From the IMG/VR virus record IMGVR_UViG_2802429219_000001: a DNA stretch of 15,819 nucleotides; one strand, written 5' to 3'. How positions within the stretch are numbered: the stretch's first letter is position 1; each line of letters opens with the position of its first letter. Below, in pieces: positions 1-15,819 of the stretch. The translations under genes were made by a program, and so were the position numbers. The notes beneath the pieces are model-generated. The model had not been told where the DNA came from and did no database searches. It saw only the letters and a program-made list of their open reading frames with translations. The stretch is from a virus (taxonomy: Duplodnaviria > Heunggongvirae > Uroviricota > Caudoviricetes).

Positions 1-127
1 TTTACGCACCTCTTTTCCTAACAAAACGCCAGCCATCTCAAAATTAGAACTAGTGTTAGACATATATCCAAGCCTATCTCTTATTTTAAGATACATCTAC
101 TGTCTGGTATTTCAGGGGGCCAGCTCA
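1..127. mobile_element. Terminal segment of an insertion sequence, IS3 family (IS2-group-like), ending at a CA dinucleotide at about 126-127; only one terminus is in the window
   Basis: Bases ~60-127 (…actagtgttagacat…cttattttaagatacatctactgtctggtatttcagggggccagctca) resemble from memory the IS2 terminal inverted repeat (GGCCCCCTGAA… / TATCACTTAA… / ACTAGT motifs) but are not identical. Endolysin homology begins abruptly at 128-129 and an in-frame stop lies at 87-89. No search was run. Confidence 0.45.
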
Positions 128-128
128 G

Positions 129-479
129 ACTGTATGTCACGGGCATACAGGAAAAGACATCATGCTCGGTAAAACGTATACCAAAGCAGAATGCAAAGCA
201 CTCTTGAATAAAGACCTTGCCACTGTCGCCAGACAAATTAACCCGTACATCAAAGTCGATATACCGGAAACAACGCGCGGCGCTCTTTACTCATTCGTTT
301 ACAACGTGGGTGCTGGCAATTTCAGAACATCGACGCTTCTTCGCAAAATAAACCAGGGCGATATCAAAGGCGCATGTGATCAGCTACGTCGCTGGACATA
401 TGCTGGCGGTAAGCAATGGAAAGGTCTCATGACTCGTCGTGAGATTGATCGTGAAATCTGTTTGTGGGGTCAGCAATGA
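129..479 (+). pseudogene. R: 5'-truncated endolysin R, phage 21 R / DLP12 RrrD type (T4-lysozyme-like, GH24); lacks the N-terminal SAR segment and the catalytic Glu/Asp
   Basis: In-frame translation from 129 reads [83 protein letters not shown]…LWGQQ, matching the C-terminal ~115 aa of R21/RrrD as I recall it. Upstream codons (…RGPAQ) do not match the expected …YKDIVGVW, there is a stop at 87-89 and no start codon between 90 and 161. Stop at 477-479 overlaps the Rz ATG. Confidence 0.7.
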
Positions 480-937
480 ACAGAGTAACCGCGATTATCT
501 CCGCTCTGGTTATCTGCATCATCGTCTGCCTGTCATGGGCTGTTAATCATTACCGTGATAACGCCATTACCTACAAAGCCCAGCGCGACAAAAATGCCAG
601 AGAACTGAAGCTGGCGAACGCGGCAATTACTGACATGCAGATGCGTCAGCGTGATGTTGCTGCGCTCGATGCAAAATACACGAAGGAGTTAGCTGATGCG
701 AAAGCTGAAAATGATGCTCTGCGTGATGATGTTGCCGCTGGTCGTCGTCGGTTGCACATCAAAGCAGTCTGTCAGTCAGTGCGTGAAGCCACCACCGCCT
801 CCGGCGTGGATAATGCAGCCTCCCCCCGACTGGCAGACACCGCTGAACGGGATTATTTCACCCTCAGAGAGAGGCTGATCACTATGCAAAAACAACTGGA
901 AGGAACCCAGAAGTATATTAATGAGCAGTGCAGATAG
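476..937 (+). CDS. Rz: Inner-membrane spanin subunit Rz (i-spanin)
   Basis: Translation [45 protein letters not shown]… is near-identical to lambda Rz (153 aa). ATG at 476 overlaps the R stop (ATGA), with an N-terminal transmembrane segment. The track ORF starts 4 codons upstream at a GTG. Confidence 0.93.
696..878 (+). CDS. Rz1: Outer-membrane lipoprotein spanin subunit Rz1 (o-spanin), embedded in the +1 frame of Rz
   Basis: 60-aa product [60 protein letters not shown] has a lipobox (VVVGC), is proline-rich and matches lambda Rz1. It lies entirely inside Rz. Confidence 0.92.
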
Positions 938-940
938 AGC

Positions 941-958
941 TGCCCATATCGATGGGCA
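941..958. other. Inverted repeat (7-bp stem tgcccat/atgggca, 4-nt loop) between the convergent genes Rz and bor; possible weak bidirectional terminator or RNA 3'-end hairpin
   Basis: Seen directly in the sequence between the Rz stop (935-937) and the bor stop (969-971). There is no strong T-run on either side. Confidence 0.3.
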
Positions 959-968
959 ACTCATGCAA

Positions 969-1262
969 TTATTGTGAGCAATACACACGCGCTTCCAGCG
1001 GAGTATAAATGCCTAAAGTAATAAAACCGAGAAATCCATTTACGAATGTTTGCTGGGTTTCTGTTTTAACAACATTTTCTGCGCCGCCACAAATTTTGGC
1101 TGCATCAACAGTTTTCTCCTGTCCAATTCCCGAAACGAAGAAATGATGGGTGATGGTTTCCTTTGGTGTTACTGCTGTCGGTTTGTTTCCAACAGTAAAC
1201 GTCTGTTGAGCACATCCTGTAATAAGCATTGCCAGAGCGGCAGAAAACAACATTTTTTTCAT
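969..1262 (-). CDS. bor: Bor lipoprotein (serum-resistance, lysogenic-conversion moron; Iss family)
   Basis: Minus-strand translation from the ATG at 1262 gives MKKMLFSAALAMLITGCAQQTFTVGNKPTAVTPKETITHHFFVSGIGQEKTVDAAKICGGAENVVKTETQQTFVNGFLGFITLGIYTPLEARVYCSQ (97 aa), matching lambda Bor with lipobox LITGC. AGGA ribosome-binding site upstream. The track ORF extends 16 codons further to a non-native start. Confidence 0.93.
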   Translation of the reverse strand: MKKMLFSAALAMLITGCAQQTFTVGNKPTAVTPKETITHHFFVSGIGQEKTVDAAKICGGAENVVKTETQQTFVNGFLGFITLGIYTPLEARVYCSQ

Positions 1263-1330
1263 CTTATTATCCTGCATTGTTAAAAACGGCAGAATCCTAT
1301 GTGACAACAATTAAACGATAGTTAAATGGA
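1263..1330 (-). promoter_or_regulatory. Putative bor promoter region (AT-rich, upstream of the minus-strand bor start)
   Basis: The minus-strand sequence upstream of the bor ATG contains TTGTCA, a 17-nt spacer, then TTTAAC, followed by the AGGA ribosome-binding site. The hexamers are weak matches, and the call is inferred from the need for a late-operon-independent bor promoter. Confidence 0.25.
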
Positions 1331-1740
1331 TTGATGAAAATTAAAACTATATAGGTGGATGCTCAGCCTATTGGAGGAGGGGGGGGCACTCAGAATCCTG
1401 TGGAATGAAATAAACCGCTCTATCTGTCCATTACCCTTTTAGCTGCGCTGTATCGTCGCCGTATTCCCGCATTAACCATGACCGTAGCCCGACGGGGAAT
1501 TCCTTCTGCGTGAGTGTGCGGGAATAATCAAAAACGATGCACACCGGGTTTTTACCGCGTTTATGGTTCGCGGGGGTGTCCCTCATGCTCGCCAGTCCTG
1601 TGCGGGGGTGGAAGAAACAGGACGTGTATTCAGGTCTGTGTGACTGTGGTCGCAAGACTTTTGTCGTTCAGCTATGAAATCCCATTACGAAGTAGACCAG
1701 AACGGCCAACGGGTCCTTTCCGGCGATCCGACAGGTTACG

Positions 1741-1752
1741 GGGCGGCGACCT
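1741..1752. other. cosN, the 12-nt cohesive-end sequence GGGCGGCGACCT (terminase nicking site)
   Basis: Exact sequence …cgacaggttacg|gggcggcgacct|cgcgggttttcgctatttatgaaaatttt… matches the lambda right-end/left-end junction as remembered. It sits 178 bp upstream of Nu1, as in lambda. Confidence 0.88.
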
Positions 1753-1790
1753 CGCGGGTTTTCGCTATTTATGAAAATTTTCCGGTTTAA

Positions 1791-1902
1791 GGCGTTTCCG
1801 TTCTTCTTCGTCGTAACTTAATGTTTTTATTTAAAATACCCCCTGAAAAGAAAGGAAACGACAGGTGCTGAAAGCGAGCTTTTTGGCCTCTGTCGTTTCC
1901 TT
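1791..1902. promoter_or_regulatory. cosB, the terminase small-subunit binding region with three R elements (R3, R2, R1); an IHF site is expected between cosN and R3
   Basis: CGTTTCC at 1793-1799 and 1894-1900 and its inverse GGAAACG at 1854-1860. The R2 and R1 copies form a 12-bp inverted repeat (aggaaacgacag at 1853-1864 / ctgtcgtttcct at 1890-1901). Arrangement matches lambda cosB. Confidence 0.8.
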
Positions 1903-1929
1903 TCTCTGTTTTTGTCCGTGGAATGAGCA

Positions 1930-2449
1930 ATGGAAGTCAACAAAAAGCAGCTGGCTGACATTTTCGGTGCGAGTATCCGTACCATTCAGAACTGGCAGGA
2001 ACAGGGAATGCCCGTTCTGCGAGGCGGTGGCAAGGGTAATGAGGTGCTTTATGACTCTGCCGCCGTCATAAAATGGTATGCCGAAAGGGATGCTGAAATT
2101 GAGAACGAAAAGCTGCGCCGGGAGGTTGAAGAACTGCGGCAGGCCAGCGAGGCAGATCTCCAGCCAGGGACTATTGAGTACGAACGCCATCGACTTACGC
2201 GTGCGCAGGCCGACGCACAGGAACTGAAGAATGCCAGAGACTCCGCTGAAGTGGTGGAAACCGCATTCTGTACTTTCGTGTTGTCGCGGATCGCAGGTGA
2301 AATTGCCAGTATTCTCGACGGGATCCCCCTGTCGGTGCAGCGGCGTTTTCCGGAACTGGAAAACCGACATGTTGATTTCCTGAAACGGGATATCATCAAA
2401 GCCATGAACAAAGCAGCCGCGCTGGATGAACTGATACCGGGGTTGCTGA

Positions 2450-2475
<26 letters not shown>
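1930..2475 (+). CDS. Nu1: Terminase small subunit gpNu1
   Basis: 181-aa product MEVNKKQLADIFGASIRTIQNWQEQGMPVLRGGGKGNEVLYDSAAV… matches lambda Nu1, including the N-terminal helix-turn-helix. Confidence 0.96.
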
Positions 2476-6156
<3,681 letters not shown>

Positions 6157-6176
<20 letters not shown>

Positions 6177-7488
6177 TCTCCCGCATATTGCCAGCATGGC
6201 CTTTAATGAGCCGCTGATGCTTGAACCCGCCTATGCGCGGGTTTTCTTTTGTGCGCTTGCAGGCCAGCTTGGGATCAGCCGCCTGACGGATGCGGTGTCC
6301 GGCGACAGCCTGACTGCCCAGGAGGCACTCGCGACGCTGGCATTATCCGGTGATGATGACGGACCACGACAGGCCCGCAGTTATCAGGTCATGAACGGCA
6401 TCGCCGTGCTGCCGGTGTCCGGCACGCTGGTCAGCCGGACGCGGGCGCTGCAGCCGTACTCGGGGATGACCGGTTACAACGGCATTATCGCCCGTCTGCA
6501 ACAGGCTGCCAGCGACCCGATGGTGGACGGCATTCTGCTCGATATGGACACGCCAGGCGGAATGGTGGCGGGGGCATTTGACTGCGCTGACATCATCGCC
6601 CGTGTGCGTGACATAAAACCGGTATGGGCGCTGGCCAACGACATGAACTGTAGTGCAGGTCAGCTGCTTGCCAGTGCCGCCTCCCGGCGTCTGGTCACGC
6701 AGACCGCCCGGACAGGCTCCATCGGCGTCATGATGGCTCACAGTAATTACGGTGCTGCCCTGGAGAAACAGGGTGTGGAAATCACGCTGATTTACAGCGG
6801 CAGCCATAAGGTGGATGGCAATCCCTACAGCCATCTTCCGGATGACGTCCGGGAGACACTGCAGTCCCGGATGGACGCAACCCGCCAGATGTTTGCGCAG
6901 AAGGTGTCGGCATATACCGGCCTGTCTGTGCAGGCTGTGCTGGATACCGAGGCTGCAGTGTACAGCGGTCAGGAGGCCATTGATGCCGGACTGGCTGATG
7001 AACTTGTTAACAGCACCGATGCGATCACCGTCATGCGTGATGCACTGGATGCGCGTAAATCCCGTCTCTCAGGAGGGCGAATGACCAAAGAGACTCAATC
7101 AACAACTGTTTCAGCCACTGCTTCGCAGGCTGACGTTACTGACGTGGTGCCAGCGACGGAGGGCGAAAACGCCAGCGCGGCGCAGCCGGACGTGAACGCG
7201 CAGATCACCGCAGCGGTTGCGGCAGAAAACAGCCGCATTATGGGGATCCTCAACTGTGAGGAGGCTCACGGACGCGAAGAACAGGCGCGCGTTCTGGCAG
7301 AAACCCCCGGAATGACCGTGGAAACGGCCCGCCGCATTCTGGCTGCAGCACCACAGAGTGCACAGGCGCGCAGTGACACTGCGCTGGATCGTCTGATGCA
7401 GGGTGCACCGGCACCGCTGGCTGCAGGTAACCTGGCATCTGATACCAATAAAGAATTACTTAATACACCTGAAGCTTTACCGGTATAA
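6157..7488 (+). CDS. C: Head maturation protease / minor capsid protein gpC (ClpP/S49-like)
   Basis: GTG start at 6157 gives (M)TAELRNLPHIASMAFNEPLMLEPAYARVFF…, matching lambda gpC. Overlaps the B 3' end by 20 nt. The track ORF begins further upstream at 6010, inside B. The product is about 4 aa longer than lambda C by coordinate arithmetic. Confidence 0.92.
6871..7488 (+). CDS. Nu3: Scaffolding protein gpNu3, an in-frame internal start within C sharing its C-terminus
   Basis: ATG at 6871 (MDATRQMFAQKVSAYTGLSVQAV…) is in the same frame as C. Its position matches lambda Nu3 relative to C. Confidence 0.8.
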   Translation: MDATRQMFAQKVSAYTGLSVQAVLDTEAAVYSGQEAIDAGLADELVNSTDAITVMRDALDARKSRLSGGRMTKETQSTTVSATASQADVTDVVPATEGENASAAQPDVNAQITAAVAAENSRIMGILNCEEAHGREEQARVLAETPGMTVETARRILAAAPQSAQARSDTALDRLMQGAPAPLAAGNLASDTNKELLNTPEALPV

Positions 7489-7497
7489 GAGGCAGTT

Positions 7498-7830
7498 ATG
7501 GCGACAAAAGAAGAGTTTAACCATTACCAGCCGCTGGGTAACAGTGATCCGGCTCATACAGCAATTGCGCCTGGCGGATTGAGTGCGAAAACGCCTGCAA
7601 TGACCCCGCTGATGCTGGATGGCACTACCCGTAAGCTGGTTGTGTGGGATGGCACCACCGACGGTGCAGCCGTTGGCATTCTGGCGGTTGCTGCTGACCA
7701 GACCAGCACCACACTGACGTTCTACAAGTCCGGCTCGTTCCGTTATGAGGATGTGCTCTGGCCGGAGGCTGCCAGCGACGAGACGAAAAAACGGACCGCG
7801 TTTGCCGGAACGGCAATCAGCATCGTTTAA
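7498..7830 (+). CDS. D: Head decoration protein gpD
   Basis: 110-aa product [42 protein letters not shown]…[11 protein letters not shown] matches lambda gpD. The N-terminal third seems slightly diverged from my recollection of lambda. Confidence 0.94.
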
Positions 7831-7847
7831 TCTTCCCCTTCATCAAC

Positions 7848-7872
7848 AAAGGCCGCCTGTGCGGCTTTTTTT
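7848..7872 (+). terminator. Intrinsic-terminator-like hairpin with T-run in the D-E intergenic spacer (candidate partial terminator or mRNA-stabilising 3' structure)
   Basis: aaaggccgc-ctgt-gcggcttt followed by ttttttt (7866-7872): GC stem gccgc/gcggc extendable with A-U pairs, 4-nt loop, 7 consecutive T. Seen directly in the sequence. Confidence 0.5.
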
Positions 7873-7885
7873 ATGGAAATAATTT

Positions 7886-8911
7886 ATGTCTGTATATACA
7901 ACTGCAGAATTACTGGCATCGACCCAGCATCACTTTAAGTTCGATCCGCTGTTTCTGCGCCTGTTTTTCCGTGAAACCTATCCTTTCACCACGGAAAAAG
8001 TCTATCTCTCACAAATTCCGGGACTGGTAAACATGGCGCTGTACGTTTCGCCGATTGTTTCCGGTGAGGTTATCCGATCCCGTGGCGGCTCCACCTCTGA
8101 ATTTACGCCGGGTTATGTCAAACCCAAGCATGAGGTGAATCCGCAGATGACCCTGCGTCGCCTGCCGGATGAAGATCCGCAGAACCTGGCTGACCCGGCT
8201 TACCGTCGTCGCCGTATTATTCGGCAGAATATGCTGGATGAAAATCTGGCGATTGCCCAGGTCGAAGAGATGCAGGCAGTTTCTGCCGTGCTTAAGGGCA
8301 AATACACCATGACCGGTGAAGCCTTCGATCCGGTTGAGGTGGATATGGGCCGCAGTGCGGCGAATAACATCACGCAGTCCGGCGGCACGGAGTGGAGCAA
8401 GCGTGACAAGTCCACGTATGACCCGACCGACGATATCGAAGCCTACGCGCTGAACGCCAGCGGTGTGGTGAATATCATCGTGTTTGATCCGAAAGGCTGG
8501 GCGCTGTTCCGTTCCTTCAAGGCCGTCAGGGAGAAGCTGGATACCCGTCGCGGCTCTCATTCCGAGCTGGAGACAGCGGTAAAAGACCTGGGCAAAGCGG
8601 TGTCTTATAAGGGAATGTATGGCGATGTGGCCATCGTCGTGTATTCCGGACAGTACGTGGAAAACGGCGTCAAAAAGAACTTCCTGCCGGACAACACGAT
8701 GGTGCTGGGGAACACTCAGGCACGCGGTCTGCGCACCTATGGTTGCATTCAGGATGCGGACGCACAGCGCGAAGGCATTAACGCCTCTGCCCGTTACCCG
8801 AAAAACTGGGTGACCACCGGCGACCCGGCGCGTGAGTTCACCATGATTCAGTCAGCACCGCTGATGCTGCTGGCTGACCCTGATGAGTTCGTGTCTGTAC
8901 AACTGGCGTAA
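7886..8911 (+). CDS. E: Major capsid protein gpE (HK97 fold)
   Basis: 341-aa product MSVYTTAELLASTQHHFKFDPLFLRLFFRETYPFTTEKVYLSQIPGLVNMALYVSP…EFVSVQLA matches lambda gpE in length and sequence. Confidence 0.96.
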   Translation: MSVYTTAELLASTQHHFKFDPLFLRLFFRETYPFTTEKVYLSQIPGLVNMALYVSPIVSGEVIRSRGGSTSEFTPGYVKPKHEVNPQMTLRRLPDEDPQNLADPAYRRRRIIRQNMLDENLAIAQVEEMQAVSAVLKGKYTMTGEAFDPVEVDMGRSAANNITQSGGTEWSKRDKSTYDPTDDIEAYALNASGVVNIIVFDPKGWALFRSFKAVREKLDTRRGSHSELETAVKDLGKAVSYKGMYGDVAIVVYSGQYVENGVKKNFLPDNTMVLGNTQARGLRTYGCIQDADAQREGINASARYPKNWVTTGDPAREFTMIQSAPLMLLADPDEFVSVQLA

Positions 8912-8913
8912 TC

Positions 8914-8940
8914 ATGGCCCTTCGGGGCCATTGTTTCTCT
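8914..8940 (+). terminator. GC-rich hairpin with UUCG tetraloop plus U-rich tail immediately after the major capsid gene (candidate attenuator or RNA stability element)
   Basis: atggccc-ttcg-gggccat (8914-8931): perfect 7-bp stem, ttcg loop, followed by tgtttctct. Begins 3 nt after the E stop, and the FI ribosome-binding site (ggagga, 8943-8948) lies just downstream. Confidence 0.45.
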
Positions 8941-8952
8941 GTGGAGGAGTCC

Positions 8953-9348
8953 ATGACGAAAGATGAACTGATTGCCCGTCTCCGCTCGCTGGGTGAACAA
9001 CTGAACCGTGATATCAGCCTGACGGGGACGAAAGAAGAACTGGCGCTCCGTGTGGCAGAGCTGGAAGAAGAGCTTGATGACACGGGCGACACTGCCGGTC
9101 AGGATACCCCTCTCAGCCCGGAAAATGTGCTGACCGGACATGAAAATGAGGTTGTATCAGCGCAGCCGGATACCGTGACTGATACGGCTGATCTGGTCAC
9201 GGTTGTGGCACTGGTGACGCTGCATACTGATGCACTTCACGCCACGCGGGATGAGGCTGTGGCATTTGTGCTGCCGGGAACGGCGTTCCGTGTCTCTGCC
9301 GGTGTGGCAGCTGAAATGACAGAGCGCGGCCTGGCCAGAATGCAATAA
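8953..9348 (+). CDS. FI: DNA-packaging / head assembly accessory protein gpFI
   Basis: ATG at 8953 preceded by GGAGGA. Product MTKDELIARLRSLGEQLNRDISLTGTKEELALRVAELEEELDD…ERGLARMQ matches lambda gpFI. The track ORF extends 13 codons upstream through the hairpin and is unlikely to be the real start. Confidence 0.92.
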   Translation: MTKDELIARLRSLGEQLNRDISLTGTKEELALRVAELEEELDDTGDTAGQDTPLSPENVLTGHENEVVSAQPDTVTDTADLVTVVALVTLHTDALHATRDEAVAFVLPGTAFRVSAGVAAEMTERGLARMQ

Positions 9349-9359
9349 CGGGAGGCGCT

Positions 9360-9713
9360 GTGGCTGATTTCGATAACCTGTTCGATGCTGCCATTGCCTG
9401 CGCCGATGAAACGATACGCGGGTACATGGGAACGTCAGCCACCATGACATCCGGTGAGCAGTCCGGTGCTGTGATACGTGGTGTTTTTGATGACCCTGAA
9501 AATATCAGCTATGCCGGACAGGGCGTGCGCGTTGAAGGCTCCAGCCCGTCCCTGTTTGTCCGGACTGATGAGGTGCGGCAGCTGCGGCGCGGCGACACGC
9601 TGACCATCGGTGAGGAAAACTTCTGGATAGACCGGATTTCGCCGGATGATGGCGGAAGCTGTCATCTCTGGCTTGGGCGGGGCGTACCGCCTGCCGTTAA
9701 CCGTCGCCGCTGA
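9360..9713 (+). CDS. FII: Head-tail connector (head completion) protein gpFII
   Basis: GTG start at 9360 with GGGAGG ribosome-binding site. 117-aa product (M)ADFDNLFDAAIACADETIRGYMGTSATMTSGEQSG… matches lambda gpFII. Confidence 0.94.
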   Translation: MADFDNLFDAAIACADETIRGYMGTSATMTSGEQSGAVIRGVFDDPENISYAGQGVRVEGSSPSLFVRTDEVRQLRRGDTLTIGEENFWIDRISPDDGGSCHLWLGRGVPPAVNRRR

Positions 9714-9724
9714 AAGGGGGATGT

Positions 9725-10303
9725 ATGGCCATAAAAGGTCTTGAGCAGGCCGTTGAAAACCTAAGCCGTATCAGCAGAACGGCGGTGCCCGGTGCCGCCG
9801 CAATGGCCATTAACCGCGTTGCTTCATCCGCGATATCGCAGTCGGTGGCACAGGTTGCCCGTGAGACAAAGGTACGCCGGAAACTGGTAAAGGAAAGGGC
9901 CAGGCTGAAAAGGGCTACGGTCAAAAATCCGCAGGCCAGAATCAGGGTTAACCGGGGGGATTTGCCCGTAATCAAGCTGGGTAACGCGCGGGTTGTCCTT
10001 TCCCGCCGCAGACGTCGTAAAAAGGGGCAGCGTTCATCCCTGAAAGGTGGCGGCAGCGTGCTTGTGGTGGGAAACCGTCGTATTCCCGGCGCGTTTATTC
10101 AGCAACTGAAAAATGGCCGGTGGCATGTCATGCAGCGTGTGGCCGGGAAAAACCGTTACCCCATTGATGTGGTGAAAATCCCGATGGCGGTGCCGCTGAC
10201 CACGGCGTTTAAACAGAATATTGAACGGATACGGCGTGAACGTCTTCCGAAAGAGCTGGGCTATGCGCTGCAGCATCAACTGAGAATGGTAATAAAGCGA
10301 TGA
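9725..10303 (+). CDS. Z: Tail completion protein gpZ
   Basis: 192-aa product MAIKGLEQAVENLSRISRTAVPGAAAMAINRVASSAISQSV… matches lambda gpZ. Confidence 0.94.
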   Translation: MAIKGLEQAVENLSRISRTAVPGAAAMAINRVASSAISQSVAQVARETKVRRKLVKERARLKRATVKNPQARIRVNRGDLPVIKLGNARVVLSRRRRRKKGQRSSLKGGGSVLVVGNRRIPGAFIQQLKNGRWHVMQRVAGKNRYPIDVVKIPMAVPLTTAFKQNIERIRRERLPKELGYALQHQLRMVIKR

Positions 10304-10695
10304 AACATACTGAACTCCGTGCAGCCGTACTGGATGCACTGGAGAAGCATGACACCGGGGCGACGCTTTTTGATGGTCGCCCCGCTGTTTTTGATGAGGC
10401 GGATTTTCCGGCAATTGCCGTTTATCTCACCGGCGCTGAATACACGGGCGAAGAGCTGGACAGTGATACCTGGCAGGCGGAGCTGCATATTGAAGTTTTC
10501 CTGCCTGCTCAGGTGCCGGATTCAGAGCTGGATTCGTGGATGGAGTCCCGGATTTATCCGGTGATGAGCGATGTCCCGGCACTGTCAGATTTGATCACCA
10601 GTATGGTGGCCAGTGGCTATGACTACCGGCGCGACGATGATGCGGGCCTGTGGAGTTCAGCCGATCTGACTTATGTCATTACCTATGAAATGTGA
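10300..10695 (+). CDS. U: Tail tube terminator protein gpU
   Basis: 131-aa product [48 protein letters not shown]… matches lambda gpU. ATGA overlap with the Z stop. Confidence 0.95.
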
Positions 10696-10702
10696 GGACG
10701 CT

Positions 10703-11443
10703 ATGCCTGTACCAAATCCAACAATGCCGGTGAAAGGTGCCGGGACCACACTGTGGGTTTATAAGGGGAACGGTGACCCTTATGCGAACCCGCTTTCAGA
10801 CGTTGACTGGTCGCGTCTGGCAAAAGTTAAAGACCTGACGCCCGGCGAACTGACCGCTGAGTCCTATGACGACAGCTATCTCGATGATGAGGATGCGGAC
10901 TGGACTGCGACCGGGCAGGGGCAGAAATCTGCCGGAGATACCAGCTTCACGCTGGCGTGGATGCCCGGAGAGCAGGGGCAGCAGGCGCTGCTGGCGTGGT
11001 TTAATGAAGGTGATACCCGTGCCTATAAAATCCGCTTTCCGAACGGCACGGTCGATGTGTTCCGTGGCTGGGTCAGCAGTATCGGTAAGGCGGTGACGGC
11101 GAAGGAAGTGATCACCCGCACGGTGAAGGTCACCAATGTGGGACGCCCGTCGATGGCTGAAGATCGCAGTACGGTGACGGCGGCAACCGGCATGACGGTA
11201 ACGCCAGCCAGTGCGTCCGTAGTGAAAGGGCAGAGCACCACGCTGACCGTGGCATTCCAGCCGGAAGGCGTAACCGACAAGAGCTTCCGTGCGGTGTCTT
11301 CGGATAAAACAAAAGCCACCGTGTCGGTCAGTGGTATGACCATCACCGTGAACGGCGTTGCCGCAGGCAAGGTCAACATTCCGGTTGTATCCGGTAATGG
11401 TGAGTTTGCTGCGGTTGCAGAAATCACCGTCACCGCCAGCTAA
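10703..11443 (+). CDS. V: Major tail tube protein gpV, with C-terminal Ig-like (Big_2-type) domain
   Basis: ATG at 10703 preceded by GAGGA. 246-aa product [42 protein letters not shown]…AEITVTAS matches lambda gpV. The track ORF start at 10673 is an upstream in-frame extension. Confidence 0.95.
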
Positions 11444-11458
11444 TCCGGAGAGTCAGCG

Positions 11459-11881
11459 ATGTTCCTGAAAACCGAATCATTTGAATATAACGGCGTGACC
11501 GTCACGCTTTCTGAACTGTCAGCCCTGCAGCGTATTGAGCATCTTGCCTGGTTGAAAGAGCAGGAAAAAAAGGCTGAATCCAGCGGCAACCTGCAGGTGT
11601 CTGTAGAGGATCTTATCAGAGGCGGGGCGTTTCTGGTGGCGATGTCTCTGTGGCATAACCATCCGCAGAAGACAAAGCTGCCGTCCATGAATGAAGCCAT
11701 TACGCAGATTGAGCAGGAAGTGCTTACCACCTGGCCCACGGAGGCAATTGCTCAGGCTGAAAACGTGGTGTTACGTCTGTCCGGAATGTCTGAGTTTGTG
11801 GTGAATAATTCCCCTGAACAGGCAGATGACGCCGGGCCTGCAGAGCCTGTTTCTGCGGGAAAGTGTTCGACGGTGAGCTGA
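11459..11881 (+). CDS. G: Tail assembly chaperone gpG
   Basis: 140-aa product MFLKTESFEYNGVTVTLSELSALQRIEHLAWLKEQEKK…SAGKCSTVS matches lambda gpG. Contains the slippery heptamer GGGAAAG at 11857-11863 near its 3' end. Confidence 0.94.
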   Translation: MFLKTESFEYNGVTVTLSELSALQRIEHLAWLKEQEKKAESSGNLQVSVEDLIRGGAFLVAMSLWHNHPQKTKLPSMNEAITQIEQEVLTTWPTEAIAQAENVVLRLSGMSEFVVNNSPEQADDAGPAEPVSAGKCSTVS

Positions 11882-12297
11882 GTTTTGCCCTGAAACTGGC
11901 GCGTGAGATGGGGCGACCCGACTGGCGCGCCATGCTTGCCGGGATGTCATCCACGGAGTATGCCGACTGGCACCGTTTTTACAGTACCCATTATTTTCAT
12001 GATGTTCTGCTGGATATGCACTTTTCCGGGCTGACGTACACCGTGCTCAGCCTGTTTTTCAGCGATCCGGAGATGCATCCGCTGGATTTCAGTCTGCTGA
12101 ATCGGCGCGAGGCTGACGAAGAGCCTGAAGATGATGTGCTGATGCAGAAAGCGGCAGGGCTTGCCGGAGGCGTTCGTTTTGGCCCGGACGGGAATGAAGT
12201 TATCCCCGCTTCCCCGTATGTGGCGGACATGACGGAGGATGACGTAATGCTGATGACAGTATCAGAAGGGATCGCAGGAGGAGTCCGGTATGGCTGA
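11459..12297 (+). CDS. T: Tail assembly chaperone fusion gpG-T, produced by a programmed -1 ribosomal frameshift at GGGAAAG (11857-11863)
   Basis: The -1 frame after the heptamer reads …KVFDGELSFALKLAREMGRPDWRAMLAGMSSTEYADWHRF… to a stop at 12295-12297, matching the lambda T extension. The track shows this frame as ORF 11863..12297. Confidence 0.88.
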
Positions 12298-14869
12298 ACC
12301 GGTAGGCGATCTGGTCGTTGATTTAAGTCTGGATGCGGCCAGATTTGACGAGCAGATGGCCAGAGTCAGGCGTCATTTTTCCGGTACGGAAAGTGATGCG
12401 AAAAAAACAGCGGCAGTCGTTGAACAGTCAATGAACCGGCAGGCGCTGGCTGCACAGAAAGCGGGGATTTCCGTCGGGCAGTATAAAGCTGCCATGCGTA
12501 TGCTGCCTGCGCAGTTCACCGACGTGGCCACGCAGCTTGCAGGGGGGCAGAATCCGTGGCTCATCCTGCTGCAACAGGGTGGTCAGGTGAAGGACTCCTT
12601 CGGCGGGATGATCCCCATGTTCAGGGGGCTTGCCGGTGCGATCACCCTGCCGATGGTTGGTATCACTTCGCTGGCGGTGGCGACCGGTGCGCTGGCGTAT
12701 GCCTGGTATCAGGGTGACTCAACCCTGTCCAATTTCAATAAAACGCTGGTCCTTTCCGGTAATCAGGCGGGACTGACGGCAGATCGTATGCTGGCCCTGT
12801 CCAGAGCCGGGCAGGCGGCAGGGCTGACGTTTAACCAGACCAGCGAGTCACTGACGGCGCTGGTGAATGCCGGTGTGCGTGGTGGTGAGCAGTTTGAGGC
12901 AATCAGCCAGAGTGTGGCGCGTTTCTCCTCTGCATCCGGCGTGGAGGTGGACAAGGTCGCTGAAGCCTTCGGGAAGCTGACCACTGACCCGACGTCTGGG
13001 TTGACGGCGATGGCGCGCCAGTTCCATAACGTGACGGCGGAACAGATTGCGTATGTTGCTCAGTTGCAGCGTTCCGGCGATGGGGCCGGGGCATTGCAGG
13101 CGGCGAACGAGGCCGCAACGAAAGGGTTTGATGACCAGACCCGTAAACTGAAAGATAACATGGGTACGCTGGAGACCTGGGCAGACAAGACTGCACAGGC
13201 ATTCAAATCCATGTGGGATGCGGTGCTGGATATTGGTCGCCCGGACTCCTCTGCAGATATGCTCGCCAAAGCTGAAAAGGCTTTTGATGAAGCGGATAAA
13301 AAATGGCAGTGGTATCAGAGCCGAAGCCACCGGCGCGGTAAAACGTCAGCATTTCTTGCCAATCTCCGGGGGGCATGGGAGAAGAGAGAGAATGCGCGAC
13401 TTGGGCTTTCAGCCGCCACGTTGCAGGCCGATCTTGAAAAGGCCAGTGAGATGGCAGCAAAAGATCGGGCCGAGTCTGAGGCATCACGGCTGAAATATAC
13501 CGAAGAGGCGCAGAAGGCTTACGAACGCCTGCAGACACCGCTGGAGAAATATACCGCCCGCCAGGAGGAACTGAATAAGGCACTGAAAGACGGAAAAATC
13601 CTGCAGGCAGATTACAACACGCTGATGGCGGCGGCGAAAAAGGACTATGAAGCGACGCTGAAAAAGCCGAAGCAGTCCGGCGTGAAAGTGTCTGCGGGCG
13701 ATCGTCAGGAAGACAGTGCTCATGCTGCCCTGCTGACGCTTCAGGCAGAACTCCGGACACTGGAGAAGCATGCCGGAGCGAATGAGAAAATCAGCCAGCA
13801 GCGCCGGGATTTGTGGAAGGCGGAAAGTCAGTTCGCGGTACTGGAGGAGGCGGCGCAACGTCGCCAGCTGTCCGCACAGGAGAAATCCCTGCTGGCGCAT
13901 AAAGATGAGACGCTGGAGTACAAACGCCAGCTGGCTGCACTTGGCGATAAGGTCACGTATCAGGAGCACCTGAACGCGCTGGCGCAGCAGGCGGATAAAT
14001 TCGCACAGCAGCAACGGGCAAAACGGGCAGCCATTGAGGCGAAAAACCGGGGGCTGACTGACCGGCAGGCAGCGCGGGACGCCACGGAACAGCGCCTGAA
14101 GGAACAGTATGGCGATAATCCGCTGGCGCTGAATAGCGTCATGTCAGAGCAGAAAAAGACCTGGGCGGCTGAAGACCAGCTTCGCGGGAGCTGGATGGCA
14201 GGCCTCAGGTCAGGCTGGAGTGAGTGGGAAGAGAGCGCCACGGACAGTATGTCGCAGGTTAAAAGTGCAGCCACGCAGACCTTTGATGGTATTGCACAGA
14301 ATATGGCGGCGATGCTGACCGGCAGTGAACAGAACTGGCGCAGCTTCACCCGTTCCGTGCTGTCCATGATGACAGAAATTCTGCTTAAGCAGGCAATGGT
14401 GGGGATTGTCGGGAGTATCGGCAGCGCCATTGGCGGGGCTGTTGGTGGCGGCGCATCCGCGTCAGGCGGTACAGCCATTCAGGCCGCTGCGGCGAAATTC
14501 CATTTTGCAACCGGAGGATTTACGGGAACCGGCGGCAAATATGAGCCAGCGGGGATTGTTCACCGTGGTGAGTTTGTCTTCACGAAGGAGGCAACCAGCC
14601 GGATTGGCGTGGGGAATCTTTACCGGCTGATGCGCGGCTATGCCACCGGCGGTTATGTCGGTACACCGGGCAGCATGGCAGACAGCCGGTCGCAGGCGTC
14701 CGGGACGTTTGAGCAGAATAACCATGTGGTGATTAACAACGACGGCACGAACGGGCAGATAGGTCCGGCTGCTCTGAAGGCGGTGTATGACATGGCCCGC
14801 AAGGGTGCCCGTGATGAAATTCAGACACAGATGCGTGATGGTGGCCTGTTCTCCGGAGGTGGACGATGA
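12290..14869 (+). CDS. H: Tail tape measure protein gpH
   Basis: 859-aa product MAEPVGDLVVDLSLDAARFDEQMARVRRHFSGTESDAKK…GGLFSGGGR with coiled-coil-rich middle and Gly/Ala-rich C-terminal region, matching lambda gpH. About 6 aa longer than lambda H (853 aa) by coordinate arithmetic. Overlaps the G-T 3' end. Confidence 0.95.
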   Translation: MAEPVGDLVVDLSLDAARFDEQMARVRRHFSGTESDAKKTAAVVEQSMNRQALAAQKAGISVGQYKAAMRMLPAQFTDVATQLAGGQNPWLILLQQGGQVKDSFGGMIPMFRGLAGAITLPMVGITSLAVATGALAYAWYQGDSTLSNFNKTLVLSGNQAGLTADRMLALSRAGQAAGLTFNQTSESLTALVNAGVRGGEQFEAISQSVARFSSASGVEVDKVAEAFGKLTTDPTSGLTAMARQFHNVTAEQIAYVAQLQRSGDGAGALQAANEAATKGFDDQTRKLKDNMGTLETWADKTAQAFKSMWDAVLDIGRPDSSADMLAKAEKAFDEADKKWQWYQSRSHRRGKTSAFLANLRGAWEKRENARLGLSAATLQADLEKASEMAAKDRAESEASRLKYTEEAQKAYERLQTPLEKYTARQEELNKALKDGKILQADYNTLMAAAKKDYEATLKKPKQSGVKVSAGDRQEDSAHAALLTLQAELRTLEKHAGANEKISQQRRDLWKAESQFAVLEEAAQRRQLSAQEKSLLAHKDETLEYKRQLAALGDKVTYQEHLNALAQQADKFAQQQRAKRAAIEAKNRGLTDRQAARDATEQRLKEQYGDNPLALNSVMSEQKKTWAAEDQLRGSWMAGLRSGWSEWEESATDSMSQVKSAATQTFDGIAQNMAAMLTGSEQNWRSFTRSVLSMMTEILLKQAMVGIVGSIGSAIGGAVGGGASASGGTAIQAAAAKFHFATGGFTGTGGKYEPAGIVHRGEFVFTKEATSRIGVGNLYRLMRGYATGGYVGTPGSMADSRSQASGTFEQNNHVVINNDGTNGQIGPAALKAVYDMARKGARDEIQTQMRDGGLFSGGGR

Positions 14870-15195
14870 AGACCTTCCGCTGGAAAGTGAAACCCGGTAT
14901 GGATGTGGCTTCGGTCCCTTCTGTAAGAAAGGTGCGCTTTGGTGATGGCTATTCCCAGCGAGCGCCTGCCGGGCTGAATGCCAACCTGAAAACGTACAGC
15001 GTGATGCTTTCTGTCCCCCGTGAGGAGGCCACGGTACTGGAGTCGTTTCTGGAAGAGCACGGGGGCTGGAAATCCTTTCTGTGGACGCCGCCTTATGAGT
15101 GGCGGCAGATAAAGGTGACCTGCGCAAAATGGTCGTCGCGGGTCAGTATGCTGCGTGTTGAGTTCAGCGCAGAGTTTGAACAGGTGGTGAACTGA
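14866..15195 (+). CDS. M: Minor tail protein gpM
   Basis: 109-aa product MKTFRWKVKPGMDVASVPSVRKVRFGDGYSQRAPAGLNANLKTYSVMLSV… matches lambda gpM. ATGA overlap with the H stop. Confidence 0.95.
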   Translation: MKTFRWKVKPGMDVASVPSVRKVRFGDGYSQRAPAGLNANLKTYSVMLSVPREEATVLESFLEEHGGWKSFLWTPPYEWRQIKVTCAKWSSRVSMLRVEFSAEFEQVVN

Positions 15196-15819
15196 TGCAG
15201 GATATCCGACAGGAAACACTGAATGAATGCACCCGTGCGGAGCAGTCTGCCTGCGTGGTGCTCTGGGAAATCGATCTGACAGAGGTCGGTGGAGAACGTT
15301 ATTTTTTCTGTAATGAGCAGAACGAAAAAGGTGAGCCGGTCACCTGGCAGGGGCGACAGTATCAGCCGTATCCCATTCAGGGGAGCGGTTTTGAACTGAA
15401 TGGCAAAGGCACCAGTACGCGCCCCACGCTGACGGTTTCTAACCTGTACGGTATGGTCACCGGGATGGCGGAAGATATGCAGAGTCTGGTCGGCGGAACG
15501 GTGGTCCGGCGTAAGGTTTACGCCCGTTTTCTGGATGCGGTGAACTTCGTCAACGGAAACAGTTACGCCGATCCGGAGCAGGAGGTGATCAGCCGCTGGC
15601 GCATTGAGCAGTGCAGCGAACTGAGCGCGGTGAGTGCCTCTTTTGTACTGTCCACGCCGACGGAAACGGATGGCGCTGTTTTTCCGGGACGTATCATGCT
15701 GGCCAACACCTGCACCTGGACCTATCGCGGTGACGAGTGCGGTTATAGCGGTCCGGCTGTCGCGGATGAATATGACCAGCCAACGTCCGATATCACGAAG
15801 GATAAATGCAGCAAATGCC
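15195..15819 (+). CDS. L: Minor tail protein gpL, 3'-partial (runs off the end of the window)
   Basis: ATG at 15195 overlaps the M stop (ATGA). The frame is open to the window end and translates MQDIRQETLNECTRAEQSACVVLWEIDLTEVGGERYFFCNEQNEKGEPVTWQGRQYQPYPIQGSGFELNGKGTSTRPTLTVSNLYGMV…, matching lambda gpL. Absent from the ORF track because no stop lies in the window. Confidence 0.9.
   Translation, partial: MQDIRQETLNECTRAEQSACVVLWEIDLTEVGGERYFFCNEQNEKGEPVTWQGRQYQPYPIQGSGFELNGKGTSTRPTLTVSNLYGMVTGMAEDMQSLVGGTVVRRKVYARFLDAVNFVNGNSYADPEQEVISRWRIEQCSELSAVSASFVLSTPTETDGAVFPGRIMLANTCTWTYRGDECGYSGPAVADEYDQPTSDITKDKCSKC

Follow-up and report, generated by a model that had tools for sequence, protein, structure and literature searches.

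A lambda-like Escherichia coli prophage with its SAR-endolysin gene interrupted by ISEc48 and probably defective in virion release

The SAR-endolysin gene R of a lambda-like Escherichia coli prophage appears to be disrupted by a simple insertion of ISEc48, and the prophage on its own would be able to build virions but not to release them; a probability of about 0.8 is given to this account as a whole. The window analysed here is the whole stretch of DNA and is coextensive with a draft contig of 15,819 bp, PTSA01000054.1 (assembly GCA_002965785.1). In the proposed mechanism, ISEc48 (~1.34 kb) would have transposed into R in such an orientation that the transposase gene is read against phage late transcription, the left end of the IS adjoining R nt 147.

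Identification of the insertion sequence

Positions 1-127 (minus strand) are the left end of ISEc48, an IS2-like member of the IS3 family. Indeed, all 127 nt are identical (127/127) to those of many annotated copies on E. coli chromosomes and plasmids, the annotation beside these matches reads "IS3-like element ISEc48 family transposase", and the match sits at the edge of the element. Of the 5426 complete E. coli genomes, 744 contain this sequence, 410 of them with a match over most of its length, and up to 26 places per genome match the ISEc48 end. At six loci besides that of the UMNK88 copy (L004), ISEc48 copies are identical up to the terminal ...CAGCTCA, the last base of which is window position 127, and are bordered by unrelated flanks beyond it; base 127 accordingly marks the actual end of ISEc48, because the copies diverge directly after the equivalent base.

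Full copies of ISEc48 are 1336-1337 bp long (1337 bp for the UMNK88 copy). Their imperfect terminal inverted repeats read TGTTCTTGCCCCC... on one side and ...GGGGGCCAGCTCA on the side found in the window; the termini are of the 5'-TG...CA-3' type and the 38-nt terminal arms are 74% complementary. The window holds only the terminal 127 nt of this element, a stub, as the contig begins here, and shares with it (i) the inverted repeat, at approximately positions 81-127 with its last base at 127, and (ii) the start of orfA, of which the first 21 codons (MSNTSSNFEMAGVLLGKEVRK..., positions 1-63, minus strand; translation of a partial gene call) run off the contig start. The transposase is thus antisense to the phage genes. 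In full copies elsewhere, orfA and orfB are annotated with a "programmed frameshift", whereas the window itself contains only these 21 orfA codons, and the Pfam domains HTH_Tnp_1, rve and rve_3 (DDE) are encoded. OrfB, and OrfB alone, passes the NCBIfam equivalog model of the IS3 family (207 versus a cut-off of 160). The best NCBIfam subfamily models for OrfA and OrfB are IS2 TnpA and TnpB, with both scores under the model cut-offs, so that ISEc48 is not IS2 itself, which is its nearest relative.

Remnant of the endolysin gene

From base 128 onwards, the window is 99.8% identical to the intact rrrD/R genes of thousands of E. coli genomes (query 128-600), and all the best alignments to these genes begin at query base 128. 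With reference to the gene at locus L002 (498 nt, 165 codons), window position 128 is nt 147, the third base of the Trp49 codon, and positions 129-131 are the Thr50 codon. Positions 128-479 (plus strand) hold the 3' part of a phage-21 R/RrrD-type SAR lysozyme gene (GH24), as a pseudogene fragment of 352 nt (nt 147-498, codons 50-165 and the stop). The intact protein, for which structures of ~99% identical proteins have been solved (RrrD, 4ZPU; phage 21 lysozyme, 3HDE and 3HDF), carries the motif L-E35-GVSYIPYK-D44-IVGVW-T50, i.e. E-X8-D-X5-T, after an N-terminal hydrophobic segment rich in Ala and Gly; this lysozyme triad and the SAR concept have been described (PMC9239132). Residues 1-49, which include the SAR segment, E35 and D44, have no counterpart in the window, and the T50 codon lies 5' of the only start codon, at position 162.

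A last in-frame TAA stop (positions 87-89, plus strand; frame translation and ORF list) is located inside the IS sequence, 5' of the lysozyme remnant, and therefore no read-in fusion from the IS into the lysozyme frame is possible. The first ATG, GTG or TTG codon after this stop in the R frame is the ATG at 162 (Met61), which opens the longest ORF left in the frame (positions 162-479, plus strand, 105 aa), without SAR segment, E35, D44 or T50. As an AGGA motif is found 9 nt upstream of this ATG, the 105-aa fragment might be translated, in which case it would have neither catalytic triad nor export signal. It aligns with positions 32-123 of the 125 of PF00959 (E = 2.9e-33), whereas the alignment of the intact protein extends over 3-125. 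PTSA01000054.1 is the only contig on which a product identical to these 105 aa was found; by clustering, the ORF groups with C-terminal lysozyme fragments (1645 in the cluster), most of which are named "lysozyme RrrD, partial".

These results bear out the original prediction, according to which the first ~127 nt were the end of an IS3-family, IS2-group element, GH24 homology started abruptly at 128-129 with the Thr of the catalytic motif, the catalytic Glu and Asp and the SAR segment were missing, and the stop at 87-89, with no start codon before 162, left at best an inactive fragment of 105 aa.

In comparison with phage 21 R and DLP12 RrrD (PDB 3HDE, 3HDF, 4ZPU), residues 50-165 (positions 129-476) are essentially identical, with one substitution, and the Rz/Rz1 context is the same; the relatives carry a gene for a 71-aa class II holin upstream. 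Unlike them, the gene described here is without codons 1-49 and without a start codon that would include Thr50, i.e. it is a pseudogene fragment and not a functional member of the family. Only one base in 473 differs between the remnant and intact genes, and for this reason the disruption of R is recent. The sole amino-acid change relative to close intact relatives is E156D (EIDRE for EIERE, positions 449-451).

Late region downstream of the endolysin gene

A lambda-type late region in lambda gene order, comprising Rz with embedded Rz1, cosN, and the genes from Nu1/A to the tail genes, follows the remnant. Indeed, the window encodes an intact inner-membrane spanin subunit Rz (476-937, plus strand, 153 aa; PF03245 1-126 of 126; same length as Rz of PhiR11_1), the start of which overlaps the R stop (ATGA), and an intact outer-membrane lipoprotein spanin subunit Rz1 (696-878, plus strand, 60 aa; PF06085 1-40 of 41), embedded in Rz in the +1 frame. 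These are followed by a bor lipoprotein gene (969-1262, minus strand, 97 aa; PF06291 and ORF list), by a single, exact match to the lambda-type cosN GGGCGGCGACCT (1741-1752, plus strand), by the genes Nu1, A, W, B, C/Nu3, D, E, FI, FII, Z, U, V, G, T, H and M (1930-15195, plus strand), which are full length according to ORF lengths and Pfam coverage, and by the tail gene L (from 15195, plus strand), which is cut by the contig end (15819). The earlier statement that Rz/Rz1 and all head and tail genes were intact accordingly holds for Rz, Rz1 and the genes from Nu1 to M, but not for L, which is truncated; since the late region in the window spans Rz to L only, K, I and J, as well as the early region and the att sites, lie outside it.

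Bases 128-12000 share 97% identity over 99% of their length with the Escherichia phages Turner and PhiR11_1, and 96.5% with mEp332. Being so close to those of lambdoid phages with deposited genomes, the morphogenetic genes within the window look functional. In PhiR11_1, the genes that precede Rz are, in order, Q, a porin gene, S (71 aa) and R (165 aa). The contig 3' end, inside L, probably coincides with another repeat shared between prophages.

A few further features of this region were recorded. The spacer between bor and Nu1 (1263-1929) contains a run of eight G at 1379-1386, upstream of cosN, and a minus-strand ORF of 51 aa (1431-1586) with no Pfam hit; in the equivalent spacer of PhiR11_1, four small genes are annotated as hypothetical. 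An Rfam scan of the whole window returned no RNA family at the gathering score. A prophage of E. coli CE10 (NC_017646.1 577327-594264) is 98% identical, with an IS3-family transposase within the region homologous to 128-15819 and a match ~1.2 kb longer than the query (window 128-15819).

Predicted consequences for lysis

We infer that neither half of R can encode an active muramidase: an upstream piece, should it exist, would still encode the SAR segment and all three triad residues, but not the C-terminal ~111 residues of the fold. On induction, the prophage alone would assemble virions and its holin would kill the cell, while the murein would remain uncut, and the particles would stay trapped unless another endolysin were supplied. 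Endolysin-null lambdoid phages with intact holin and spanins cause cell death without lysis, and their virions stay trapped unless the wall is broken; virions of lambda R-defective mutants can be recovered by means of chloroform or lysozyme. The phenotype expected here is the same as that of these textbook mutants, although the latter carry point or amber mutations in the gene of a soluble transglycosylase that acts with a canonical holin, whereas the present case involves an IS-disrupted SAR lysozyme and presumably a pinholin. Judging from this analogy, a release defect of the prophage on its own is likely, and the prophage can be annotated as probably release-defective.

A consensus scan for terminator- and promoter-like sites across a complete ISEc48 in context (L009) gave no excess over shuffled sequence, and speaks neither for nor against strong polarity or an outward promoter. 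Since Q-modified polymerase is terminator-resistant, strong polarity of the IS on the late operon seems unlikely.

The insertion could instead be silent for release, if an endolysin were provided in trans by a co-induced lambdoid prophage or if R were restored by recombination. In favour of this, the R/Rz region finds matches in 5100 of the 5426 complete E. coli genomes (median of 2 places, up to 28 per genome), and complementation between prophages of E. coli O157 is reportedly the topic of a 2009 study by Asadulghani and colleagues, which PMC4587872 cites. However, the window provides no second intact endolysin and complementation needs co-induction in the same cell, and such a silent insertion is considered rather unlikely.

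Predicted architecture beyond the insertion sequence

For the release-defective prophage proposed above, the predicted order is S, R nt 1 to ~161/162, a complete ISEc48 and then R nt 147-498, in which the 5' end of R and the pinholin gene S would be found just beyond the IS, the 5' part of R being displaced by ~1.3 kb and not lost. One copy of a target-site duplication of 15-16 bp (GACTGTATGTCACGG[G]) is predicted at positions 128-143, by comparison with other ISEc48 copies, and the second copy would be expected across the IS. The far junction would then read ...GTATGGACTGTATGTCACGG(G)TGTTCTTGCCCCC..., i.e. ...GTATGGACTGTATGTCACGG(G)TGTTCTTGCCCCCTTATTTCC.

This simple architecture is probable because it is the one displayed by two fully assembled analogues. 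In the first (L009, GCA_003057355.1), the holin gene is followed by R nt 1-138, by a complete ISEc48 in the same orientation, by R from nt 123 and by Rz, with a 16-bp duplication (ATACAAAGATATTGTT) and a junction 24 bp upstream of that of the window. In the second (L018, GCA_974490285.1), the element is an IS2, again in the same orientation, with ACTGT (5 bp) duplicated on either side; R restarts at nt 148, so that its junction and that of the window are a single base apart. Both analogues share with the window the gene affected, the orientation of the IS and the length of the downstream R ORF (105 aa); unlike the window, they show both junctions and their duplications, and they represent independent events at other nucleotides.

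Direct repeats of 15-16 bp flank six of the seven complete ISEc48 copies examined, the exception being that of Rb-50 (L006). The copies concerned are located at 2791-4127 of L001, at 1291-2627 of L004, at 292-1627 of L005, L007 and L008, and at ~2036-3371 of L009, whereas the same procedure applied to the IS2 copy in the same lysozyme gene (L018, 2653-~3983), used as a control, returned the 5 bp mentioned above. Target-site duplications of the IS3 family are typically 3-5 bp long, and 5 bp long in the case of IS2. The ISEc48 copies elsewhere do not have short duplications of 3-5 bp (for the copy in the window, only the near junction is visible), and the duplications of ISEc48 thus seem unusually long for an IS3-family element. 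The few papers found to mention ISEc48 do so in passing, and nothing on its target duplication was found in them.

Alternatively, an IS-mediated deletion or rearrangement could have removed or relocated the 5' end of R together with the holin gene, and perhaps other parts of the prophage, which would then be a remnant on a larger scale. The Rb-50 copy without flanking repeats, the substrate for recombination offered by the more than 20 ISEc48 copies of some strains (up to 26 places per genome) and the absence of the predicted R'-IS fusion product from the protein matches listed are in line with this possibility. Nevertheless, the duplications are clean in the six other copies, every assembled IS insertion in R that was inspected is a simple one, in which both the 5' part of R and the holin gene are retained, and the missing fusion product could reflect how the other contig end was called; a rearrangement is therefore regarded as distinctly improbable.

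Searches relating to the simple insertion were as follows. The predicted far junction (R nt ~148-161 joined to the other ISEc48 end) occurs in none of the GTDB representative genomes, and neither does the junction of the window itself, used as a control; the source assembly is therefore outside this collection and the negative result for the far junction is uninformative. Furthermore, a predicted R'-ISEc48 read-through protein of 68 aa (assuming a 15-bp duplication) was searched against 5.8 billion proteins, a collection in which other genes of GCA_002965785.1 are present. None of the 120 truncated N-terminal fragments listed contains, as predicted, TVCHG joined to VLAPLFP, CSCPLIS or FLPPYFQ. 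The two ISEc48 read-throughs among them, P0095 and P0007, come from other assemblies and lie at other positions. Two further fragments end at the predicted duplication and were rejected as partners: P0003 stems from an IS1 insertion in a different sample, and P0038 is a contig-end partial of a different assembly.

Contig start and authenticity of the junction

The "cut" at base 1 is an assembly break within a repeated IS and not a biological end, whereas the junction at 127/128 is biological. The original prediction of an endolysin gene cut off at an IS terminus is therefore correct as regards the 127/128 junction, and the start of the window is itself a contig-end artefact. As 127 is an often-used maximum k-mer of short-read assemblers, we infer that the 127-nt IS stub is the remainder left by such an assembler (k = 127) at a repeat boundary. 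More generally, a gene that is "cut off" at a contig start usually reflects an assembly break in a repeat.

On the basis of the sequence, it is almost certain that the IS/R junction is genuine and inactivates R. A misjoining of an IS stub to the 3' part of R in a genome with an intact R, to which the assembler-set stub length of exactly 127 nt and the origin of the window from a short draft contig could point, is extremely unlikely, because R and ISEc48 have no sequence in common through which they could have been wrongly joined, the break coincides precisely with the terminal base of the IS and R resumes within a codon; moreover, independent assemblies contain real IS2-group insertions 1-24 bp from this site, and a stub of k-mer overlap at a true repeat boundary is what a genuine insertion is expected to leave. 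The IS/R junction of the window is present in none of the 5426 complete E. coli genomes: the exact allele is private, though the kind of lesion is well known.

Recurrent insertions in the same endolysin gene

IS knock-out of a prophage lysis gene is an ordinary and common kind of lesion. Indeed, at least 28 of the 120 N-terminal lysozyme fragments listed end in a recognisable IS read-through, namely 15 in IS2 (at 12 or more different codon positions), 8 in an IS629-like element (most of them directly after Thr50), 3 in another IS2-group element and 2 in ISEc48. An IS1 insertion is also found in R at ~nt 163, and ISEc48 itself occupies three positions in R and one at the S/R boundary. Altogether, codons 42-90 of R (~100-270 in gene coordinates) have been the target of many independent insertions (P0001-P0120; L009, L013, L014, L018). 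The insertions cluster in codons 42-60, but the distribution of positions is biased, as the protein search recovers only fragments with at least ~42 N-terminal residues and at most ~120 aa. In all four ISEc48 events and in the one IS2 insertion checked for orientation, the transposase is antisense to late transcription, four out of four not being significant. No obvious target-site consensus emerged from seven ISEc48 sites.

A comparable case has been published, in which IS629 interrupts the lysozyme gene of an Stx2a-converting phage of type PST1-5 and for which reduced release was inferred by the authors (PMC4587872). As here, the lysozyme gene affected is that of a lambdoid prophage and the element belongs to the IS3 family; the IS, the phage and the Stx context are different, and the concern of that study was the release of toxin rather than of virions.

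That at least four IS types have independently entered the same few dozen bases of this endolysin gene is relevant to the question of whether target preference or selection underlies the disarming of lambdoid prophages. Tentatively, the first third of R (around codons 42-60) could be a preferred landing site of IS2-group and other IS3-family elements, or hosts could repeatedly fix prophages that are safer because they are dead for lysis; as a separate and equally tentative point, ISEc48 may differ from IS2 in making duplications of 15-16 bp instead of 5 bp. If true, the distance between the two points of strand transfer on the target DNA would differ between these members of one IS group.

At the S/R boundary, the ISEc48 copy of RM10740 (L001, NZ_CP043821.1 2722420-2731205) lies between the class II holin gene and rrrD and is flanked by a 15-bp duplication that takes in the holin gene's end and the ribosome-binding region of R. 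This strain has more than 20 ISEc48-like copies, and a second lysis cassette, made up of a holin gene and an M15 peptidase gene, is located directly downstream of its rrrD.
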